DNA from: an uncultured Opitutales bacterium
GTDB taxonomy: Bacteria > Verrucomicrobiota > Verrucomicrobiia > Opitutales > JAIRKQ01
DNA length: 64,000 bases
Assembly: GCA_964577805.1 (NCBI GenBank)
Contig: CAZOAG010000002.1
Span: 7,139-71,138 of the forward strand
Direction of reading: 5' to 3'
A model generated the notes under the pieces. It was not told where the DNA came from, did not search any database, and was given only the letters and a program-made list of their open reading frames with translations. Numbering within the stretch: position 1 is the first letter of the stretch; each line of letters begins with the position of its first letter. Below are positions 35,026 to 36,437 of the stretch, in pieces. Both the position numbers and the translations under genes were made by a program.

Positions 35026-35149
35026 TTATGCAACCTGTTGCCTGTGATAGTGTTTTGAAAAAGGTCGCGATGATGGTTTTTTAAGACTTAAGACCACTGC
35101 TAGGTTTGGTAGAACAATGGGAGGCAGTTGTCCATAGAAACTTTTGGCC

Positions 35150-36270
35150 TGTGAACGGTGCGTGTAGATGTGGCGGGCAAGAGGTCGTGGTTGTTCAAAA
35201 TCGATTGCGCGCTCCTTTTGATTTTTTATGACACTTATCATCGTTGCAAAGATGTTGGCATTTGCTAGAGGATCTTTGGTTTTTGCAAACGTTGTTTTCC
35301 TATTGTACTGACCATTATTGCACTGATATTAGAATGTATGTAAATATCACGCAGGTTGTATCTATGACCAGTAGAATTGTTGTTTTACGCTTATCAGTAT
35401 CGCATTGATCACGACATTTGTGTAGTTATCTTGCGGGCGGGCGATATTTAAAATTTGTCCATGTTCAGTACTATTTATTTCCCAAATCCCCTGACCATGA
35501 CGCGAGCATCACAGAGCGATGGATTTATGAAGAAAATTTCCGCAAGGTTGTGGGGAAAAACTCCAATAGATTTTTGGAAAGACACTTTTGGCGTGCAAAA
35601 ATATGAGTGGATTTGACTTCCAATTGACGATTATCATGATTGCTGTGATACTGTCATTGATGTAATTGTTTGGCTGATAAAATGCAACGTATGCGCGCAG
35701 GCACTCAGATACCATTTGTGTTCCAGCCTATCTGTATTGCATTTGTATTGCAATATGATTGTTTGTCTGGATCAAATTAATACTGCTTTTGAAGTGAAGG
35801 TGGCTGGCCGTTTCTAATAATACCTTTCAGTCGTGAGAAACACACGTTGGTTGGACGATAGAGTTGTTGAGTTTTCCTGAATTGGTCGCGTTCCGCTTTT
35901 TGGTTTTTCTGTGACAATTATTTTTCCCGCAGAGATGTCTGAATTTGTTACACGGATGTGTTCAAGCTCCTGCAAACACTGTTTTTTTTGTTCAATTTAC
36001 GAACTTAAATTGTTATATGAATCCGGAAATTGTCTCACTGGCGAAATAGAATATAATGCCAGCAGAGCTGTTTATTTTTTTACGCTCGTGATATGACGAG
36101 AGTATCACATTGCGACGAATTTGGAAAAACAAGGCATAGAGATTCTTGCGAAAAAACTTTTGATTCGCGAAAACACGTGCCGGATGGACGATCCAGTGTC
36201 GGTGTTTGGTACAAATTGATAACGTGTCTCTTCTGATTTTTTTATGACAATTATCGTTGTCGCATTGGGA
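35150..36270. repeat. tandem array of about four degenerate ~340-bp repeat units in the tpiA-ftsK gap
   Basis: The conserved block ...TTTTGATTTTTTATGACA[CA]TTATC... recurs at 35228, 35911 and 36244, with a weaker copy at ~35581. Spacings are ~333-351 bp. Upstream blocks also align (gaaacacacgttggttggacgata / gaaaacacgtgccggatggacgat). Confidence 0.65.
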
Positions 36271-36437
36271 CAGGCGTTCGTGTACTTGTTTCGCTGGTGG
36301 GATTTAGATTAGTTGTTATAAACGTCATTATTCTATCCAGCTGTTGTATCTCGTGTTGTAATTCTTTCGTGAAATACTTTTGCGGAGGTGTGTAAAAAGT
36401 ACTGACTCTTTCAAAAAAAACTTTTCATTCGTAGTAA

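Follow-up and report, generated by a model that had tools for sequence, protein, structure and literature searches.

What occupies the 1.4 kilobases (kb) between tpiA and ftsK in an uncultured Opitutales bacterium? The question concerns a 64,000-nucleotide (nt) stretch of contig CAZOAG010000002.1 (assembly GCA_964577805.1), called the window here, in which the tpiA-ftsK gap spans positions 35026-36437. Gene callers place nothing inside it. A preliminary description of the window had also found no gene there, with the flanks and coordinates confirmed here, and had left three explanations standing: type I toxin-antitoxin loci, a family of small RNAs (sRNAs), or decayed gene remnants. Among these, the last is the only one that fits our results, because the repeated units of the gap are homologous, their open reading frames (ORFs) are broken and their divergence is neutral. 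We consider it probable that the gap is a fossil array, in which a segment of ~270-320 nt was tandemly duplicated several times and decayed to ~60% identity, leaving spacer DNA that lacks a function.

A gap of 1407-1412 nt is also present in independent assemblies from other samples and sequencing runs (loci L001, L093 and L094). Thus, the sequence is real and is not an assembly artefact.

The gap holds four degenerate homologous units, termed A, B, C and D, that are arranged head to tail (Table 1). Gapped local alignment gave scores of 322 for A with C, 258 for A with D and 239 for C with D, against a background maximum of ~200 that was determined empirically from 1846 segments of the same size taken from the window. 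Identity among these three units is 61-63% over 220-320 nt. A dot-plot of the gap contains 25 diagonals, compared with 0-7 in dinucleotide shuffles. The conserved block that it reported recurs at 35229, 35912 and 36245, and the sequences upstream can be aligned as well (35838-35864 and 36171-36197 are 74% identical at a spacing of 333). Its outline of about four tandem repeats of ~340 base pairs holds for the tandem homology of A, C and D. However, the fourth copy, B, is marginal, and the units measure 409, 274, 322 and 275 nt in order from A to D rather than a uniform 340.

Standard repeat searches are nearly blind to this array. Tandem Repeats Finder reports nothing within the gap, the repeats being too degenerate, and a blastn self-comparison yields a best match of 63 nt at 73% identity (E = 0.006) together with one 24-nt match. 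A profile built from A, C and D recovers unit A with a nhmmer E value of 9e-76, although A is itself a member of that profile. Matches to unit B are colinear but marginal (E = 1.1 and 14 with this profile; E = 2.4 and 9 with a second profile to which the unit of a sister species, described below, was added). Local alignment scores for B are 177 with A (p = 0.0005-0.008) and 151 with D, and where A meets B (35489-35537) the sequence agrees with that where C meets D (36085-36133) at 24 of 30 positions. Within unit A, the core of ~75 nt has been duplicated again, with copies at 35229, 35303 and 35385. Profile and sequence searches with A, C and D found no further unit elsewhere in the 64-kb window, nor anywhere in the retrieved loci except between tpiA and ftsK. 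The units are neither palindromic nor bounded by inverted repeats, and those inverted repeats that the region does contain are weak (~70% complementary).

Close relatives share the array. Strains whose TpiA and FtsK proteins are 98-99.9% identical to those of the window (L088 and L093-L102) carry the same four units. The more distant L104 (GCA_964589405.1; FtsK 96.8% identical) has orthologs of C at 24-232 (E = 1.9e-21) and of D at 275-518 (E = 3.4e-40), which is as far as its contig extends. A sister species represented by L084 and L103 (TpiA 86% and FtsK 92-93% identical) keeps the order NUDIX-pgk-tpiA-gap-ftsK. Its gap is only ~370-400 nt long and contains a single unit, X (8847-9094 in L084), compared with four units in the window lineage. 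Unit X is found by the profile of A, C and D alone, with nhmmer E values of 1.3e-12 in L084 and 4e-10 in L103. Two parts of unit A, 35187-35249 and 35295-35336, both match the second half of the unit in L084.

Farther away, synteny is lost. Among named proteins of Opitutales and Puniceicoccales, none exceeds 60-65% identity to the TpiA of the window, and ftsK no longer follows tpiA in the more distant loci of these orders. No additional relatives were recovered from JGI metagenomes, either by exact search for a 32-nt leader sequence described below or by search with the FtsK N-terminus. A scan of genome contigs produced only distant relatives, with TpiA identities of 60% or less and without synteny.

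Substitution counts indicate how the array evolves. Between the window and L093 or L094, the gap has 3.2-3.6% substitutions in addition to indels of 1-6 nt, and the four-fold degenerate sites of tpiA and ftsK differ at 16 of 449 positions (3.56%). Between L084 and L103, unit X has 3.2% substitutions and a 1-nt indel, and four-fold sites differ by 3.1% in ftsK and 7.1% in tpiA. When the window is compared with L084, divergence at four-fold sites of ftsK, pgk and tpiA amounts to 29-51%; the ~60-65% identity of X to A, C and D is therefore approximately neutral. Judged against these sites, the array A-D is evidently drifting at the neutral rate, with nothing conserved encoded in it.

Unit D is highly identical to its ortholog in L104, and purifying selection on the unit was considered as a reason. 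This candidate was rejected because divergence is equally low in the adjacent ftsK codons 0-99. Over this stretch of 100 codons, the window and L104 differ at 2 of 43 four-fold sites, compared with 12-29% further along the gene. The low-divergence tract spans unit D and 36438-36740 (585-885 in L104), which suggests recombination between lineages.

The preliminary description drew attention to short ORFs that start with MT[LI]I within the units, two of which are hydrophobic and encode 27 and 22 amino acids (aa). Their coordinates were given correctly, but the two ORFs are separated by several indels rather than by one in-frame indel of 3 nt. Loss of the start, a frameshift or a change in length is observed among strains that are 97-99% identical, as well as in the sister species. 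The ORF in unit A begins with ATG in the window and with GTG in every other strain. A 1-nt deletion at 35982, present in all strains apart from that of the window, shifts the frame of the ORF in unit C, and in L104 this ORF lacks a start codon. In the same locus, the ORF in unit D carries a 1-nt insertion and many replacements, and encodes 50 aa instead of 22. In unit X, ATT GCA replaces the ATG ACA of the other units, and the frame contains a further 1-nt insertion in L103. As was noted previously, no purine-rich Shine-Dalgarno sequence precedes the ORFs, and the upstream sequences are runs of T (CTCCTTTTGATTTTTT-ATG, TTTTTGGTTTTTCT-GTG and CTTCTGATTTTTTT-ATG). The plus strand of the gap is T-rich (AT skew of -0.1 to -0.25), and this composition accounts for the hydrophobicity of the peptides. 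The peptides have no Pfam or NCBIfam match at E ≤ 10, a search with low power for 22-27 aa, and no other ORF of the gap matches either database.

Some strains carry a called gene in this region, a Cys-rich ORF of 118-120 aa, and we asked whether a real gene has been disrupted in the window. The ORF is intact in L093 and L096, is interrupted by a stop in the window and is frameshifted in L094. It has no Pfam match and no homologue among 5.8 billion proteins. The disrupted-gene explanation was rejected, and the ORF is probably a spurious gene call that now resides in protein databases. A SecG pseudogene was also considered, prompted by the order tpiA-secG and by the peptide string SIALIIVA, which we take to resemble the first membrane helix of SecG. 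This identity was rejected. There is no Pfam match to SecG, secG does not lie beside tpiA in the nearest orders, and when the gap was searched by tblastn with five verrucomicrobial SecG proteins, the sole match was 11 aa long (E = 2.8). The tpiA-secG order itself is found in Verrucomicrobiae loci (L026, L040, L047, L058 and L072), where secG follows tpiA by ~20-60 nt. It is absent from that position in all Opitutales and Puniceicoccales loci examined, and the linkage was therefore broken in this branch.

The sequence next to ftsK behaves differently from the array. No substitutions occur among strains in the 139 nt at 36299-36437, where ~5 are expected (P = 0.006), and identity to L104 reaches 98% over 36385-36437. 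The window shares a block of 32 nt, TACTGACTCTTTCAAAAAAAACTTTTCATTCG, without any change with L104, L103 and L084, despite the extensive four-fold divergence between the window and L084 given above. This block matches no Rfam family, lacks a good sigma-70 consensus and is presumably a promoter, leader or binding site. On the basis of this conservation, the last ~140 nt before ftsK are probably a promoter or leader, and the only functional part of the gap.

Where might the repeat unit have come from? Several similarities suggest, but do not prove, that it derives from the ftsK leader and the first ~70 codons of the gene. The head of unit D, AAAAAACTTTTGATTCG at 36151, matches the leader sequence AAAAAACTTTTCATTCG at 36415 at 16 of 17 positions, and a leader motif, AAAAAACTTTT[CG]ATTCG, stands at the start of each unit. 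The units also contain a T-rich core (...ATTATCGTTGTCGCA...) at approximately +68 to +70 nt from a pseudo-start, the counterpart of the ftsK start codon in the alignment. At the equal offset, ftsK contains ATAATTGTTGTTGTAGCA, which encodes AIIVVVA of the first membrane helix, and its frame is that of the mini-ORFs. Unit D aligns colinearly with 36380-36627, which comprises the leader and ftsK codons 1-63 (z = 6.96, 0 of 300 shuffles, empirical p = 0.0005-0.0014); unit C aligns more weakly with the ftsK 5' region (z = 4.6). Three anchors occur at matching offsets in ftsK and in D or C: the head, the core at ~+68 and a CAAAC block at ~+128. The best match of the A, C and D profile outside the units is to L084 ftsK codons ~19-47 (E = 0.02-0.07), and weaker colinear matches fall in the 5' region of ftsK in L103, L104 and the window (36409-36578, E = 2.3). 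Reciprocally, a profile of the ftsK 5' region matches the heads of unit D in L104 (E = 0.019) and in the window (E = 0.14). In both species, the first head lies ~65-80 nt after the tpiA stop codon and the last head lies directly before ftsK. An array that opens and closes with a head is the structure expected from duplication of the head together with the ftsK 5' end.

Several results weigh against this account. When the sequences upstream of genes were compared with gene starts for 49 pairs in the window, the ftsK pair ranked first, but with a score of 204 it leads the runner-up (199) only narrowly. A chance alignment of unit D to the pgi coding region scores 216. Under stricter scoring, some other pairs of gap and flank do at least as well as the gap and the ftsK 5' region, for which z = 2.9, and adding the L084 unit to the profile does not improve its ftsK matches. 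Units A and X alone show no similarity to the ftsK 5' region. Translation of the consensus unit in any frame and comparison with the FtsK N-terminus reveals a signal of composition only (z ~0), and tblastn of FtsK N-termini found nothing significant. Because of these chance-level controls and the null protein comparison, we give the derivation from ftsK an even chance at best. Other points concern the array as a whole. Most of the columns that are invariant among A, C, D and X lie in the block AAATTGAT..CG....CTT.T..TTTTT.T.T..CA.TTAT. The estimate of a neutral rate is based on few substitutions and may be compatible with a short stretch of functional sequence, for example the binding site of a protein. 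In addition, if the copies go back to the separation of the two species, the fossil-array account gives no reason for the persistence of at least three extra ones in one lineage only.

The runner-up pair in the comparison of gene starts involves a 577-nt gap at 6203-6779, upstream of the minus-strand gene at 4106-6202. It may be a second relic of a 5'-end duplication, or an effect of composition.

The main alternative to an ftsK origin is that the amplified segment was an intergenic repeat without any coding sequence, in which ftsK is represented by its leader alone. The ftsK leader would then be the last, partial unit of an array that is functionless or near neutral, and its T-rich units would resemble codons 1-70 by chance. 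We judge this to be unlikely, although it agrees with much of the evidence just given, namely the comparable scores that arise by chance in controls, the null result at the protein level and the dissimilarity of A and X to the ftsK 5' region. It also agrees with the extent of the reciprocal matches, in which the ftsK 5' profile, through its positions 4-77, detects the heads of D and C alone and not the coding part. However, the profile of A, C and D repeatedly finds ftsK codons ~19-47 in L084, L103 and L104, where they are colinear at profile positions 110-203. Moreover, the head, core and CAAAC anchors fall at matching offsets, and the presence of one head after tpiA and another before ftsK is most simply explained by duplication of a head with a gene start.

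Explanations that assign a function to the units fare worse. Tandem sRNAs, or repeated cis-regulatory modules that provide extra promoters or regulator sites for ftsK, would have their function in the ~50-nt core or in the leader-like head. The location of most invariant columns in the core, the copy of the strongly conserved ftsK leader motif in each unit and the persistence of the unit in two lineages are the features that would favor such elements. We nevertheless consider them improbable, and the sRNA family entertained by the preliminary description is not borne out. A scan of the window at Rfam gathering thresholds found one tRNA only, and in an E-value scan of 34900-36600 the sole match was a snoRNA, by chance (E = 6.8). 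A search for a consensus structure was carried out with RNAalifold on A, C, D and X. It returned one hairpin of eight pairs at -1.08 kcal/mol on the plus strand, no pairs on the minus strand and no covariation on either. Fold z-scores of single sequences range from -2.0 to +1.6, and are not consistently more stable than those of shuffles. The neutral divergence, the frequent indels and the lack of an additional copy in the window also argue against this explanation. In addition, a consensus scan found 6 promoter-like sites compared with 4.1 in shuffles and 3 terminator-like sites compared with 1.7, none of which recurs at an equal position in the units. These chance frequencies bear equally on tandem type I toxin-antitoxin loci, in which each unit would encode an MT[LI]I membrane toxin behind a conserved leader and be repressed by antisense RNA. 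Two of the mini-ORFs are indeed short and hydrophobic and lie behind a conserved block, and some type I families (ldr, ibs and zor) are typically arranged in tandem. However, the start codon, frame and length of the ORFs are not conserved in related strains, an outcome that the preliminary description had itself named as evidence against its comparison with such loci. There is likewise no Shine-Dalgarno sequence or conserved leader structure, the peptides belong to no Pfam or NCBIfam family, divergence proceeds at the neutral rate and hydrophobicity follows from T-richness. Thus, we regard a toxin-antitoxin array as extremely improbable. The units might instead be lineage-specific functional modules that arose from the ftsK 5' end, acting either as decoys or extra copies of the leader and promoter that adjust the expression of ftsK, or as micro-proteins from the first membrane helix of FtsK that disturb the assembly of the divisome, with turnover too fast for conservation of frame to show in the few genomes compared. 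We consider this highly improbable.

Table 1. Coordinates of the repeat units of the tpiA-ftsK gap and of associated features. Positions refer to the window unless another locus is given.
Feature	Position	Strand	Remarks
Unit A	35105-35513	+	Longest unit; head ~35133-35160, core block 35187-35262, mini-ORF 35228-35311
Unit B	35514-35787	+	Weak copy with internal deletion of ~50 nt; head 35569-35617, core 35625-35673
Unit C	35788-36109	+	Mini-ORF 35911-36096 with GTG start
Unit D	36110-36384	+	Head 36140-36175, including AAAAAACTTTTGATTCG at 36151-36167; mini-ORF 36244-36312
Putative ftsK promoter/leader	36299-36437	+	Sole constrained part of the gap; 36385-36437 resembles the head of a fifth unit
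Region of the 32-nt block TACTGACTCTTTCAAAAAAAACTTTTCATTCG	36385-36437; L084 9095-9153; L103 3942-4000; L104 525-584		Directly upstream of ftsK
Candidate parent of the repeat unit	36438-36627	+	First ~190 nt of ftsK, including the first membrane helix; suggestive only
tpiA (triose-phosphate isomerase)	34237-35025	+	Left flank; ORF of 262 aa, Pfam PF00121
Short unique spacer after tpiA stop	35026-35104		Outside the repeat profile; only the first ~12 nt align with L084
ftsK	36438-38822	+	Right flank; ORF of 794 aa, Pfam FtsK_4TM/alpha/SpoIIIE/gamma
Cys-rich ORF, 118-120 aa	35455-35817; L093 2018-2380; L096 341-697		Called gene in some strains; stop in the window at 35614

A fossil array could have arisen as follows. 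The ftsK leader and roughly the first 70 codons of the gene would have been duplicated in tandem repeatedly, with unequal recombination or replication slippage in the tpiA-ftsK spacer, at the ftsK 5' end, generating the copies. The hydrophobic mini-ORFs that begin MT[LI]I would then be in-frame relics of the first membrane helix of FtsK, and their ATG or GTG starts would be accidental. The array would date from roughly the time at which the L084/L103 lineage separated and would have drifted neutrally since then. In the sister lineage, either the unit would never have been amplified past one relic or the array would have collapsed. The relics may have been retained because a low-GC, probably host-associated genome with a coding fraction of ~83% would delete junk DNA slowly.

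The setting of the locus is that of a low-GC verrucomicrobium (~39% G+C), and this genome is probably host associated. The preliminary description called the genome tightly packed, which is inaccurate: ~83% of the window is coding, and additional ORF-free gaps of 0.5-1.3 kb are present. No clear signal of a similar repeat phenomenon was found in the other large gaps of the window. One of these, of ~1.3 kb, lies upstream of pgi (55252-56556) and contains a perfect hexanucleotide microsatellite, (GACCGA)x11, at 56041-56106. A replication origin, a cluster of DnaA boxes or a dif site was considered for the tpiA-ftsK gap and rejected, since GC skew is positive on both sides of it and the TTATC motif is a poor DnaA box. 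Elsewhere in the window, ARAGORN predicts a tRNA-Tyr(GTA) at 28966-29051, whereas the scan at Rfam gathering thresholds lists only a tRNA-Leu at 21797. A metagenome-assembled genome of Puniceicoccales with 65% TpiA identity (L089, 1-1192) carries a gene for a TLC-family ATP/ADP translocase near pgk-tpiA. This gene hints at an intracellular, energy-parasitic lifestyle of the group, which would be consistent with the low GC content and loose packing of the window genome.

The result has little importance alone. It eliminates one candidate for a toxin-antitoxin or sRNA locus, and it indicates that decaying duplications, possibly of the 5' end of a membrane-protein gene, can mimic "conserved" hydrophobic mini-ORFs. 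The array is therefore a useful false-positive pattern, and a caution for screens that seek small ORFs and type I toxins. It also suggests that a low-GC genome of the Opitutales/Puniceicoccales type tolerates neutral DNA on the kilobase scale. If the ftsK origin is true, then the start of a single gene would here have been partly duplicated several times, in a series that carries dates.

Several kinds of known elements resemble the array in part. Tandem type I toxin-antitoxin arrays of enterobacteria, such as ldrABCD/rdl, ibs/sib and zor/orz, also consist of tandem units of a few hundred bases with a short hydrophobic ORF behind a leader-like block. In the array described here, however, start, frame and length are not conserved even in near-identical strains, no ribosome-binding site is present, the peptides form no family, and no signal of an antisense RNA or a structured 5' untranslated region is detectable. 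Tandem sRNA genes such as LhrC1-4 of Listeria and PrrF1/2 of Pseudomonas have high identity, terminator hairpins and conserved seeds. The array shares with them the presence of several similar non-coding units in one intergenic region, but it has no conserved structure, terminator or Rfam match, and it diverges neutrally. Repetitive extragenic palindromic sequences and bacterial interspersed mosaic elements (REP/BIME), enterobacterial repetitive intergenic consensus (ERIC) sequences and miniature inverted-repeat transposable elements (MITEs) are likewise repetitive, non-coding and intergenic. By contrast, the units found here are much longer, are not palindromic and occupy one locus only within the 64-kb window.

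The closest counterparts are pseudogene fragments and relics of partial duplications, which are known in the spacers of eroding host-associated genomes such as those of Rickettsia and Mycobacterium leprae, and the locus behaves like them. As in those relics, head-to-tail copies lie next to what may be their parent gene, intact or conserved frames are absent, substitutions are neutral and accompanied by indels, copy number differs between sister lineages, and the genome has low GC content and is ~83% coding. The array differs from typical recognizable duplicates in that its units are far more diverged (~60% identity) and ftsK is no more than a suggested source for them. Finding the 5' end of a gene in as many as four successive copies would also be unusual for relics of this kind.

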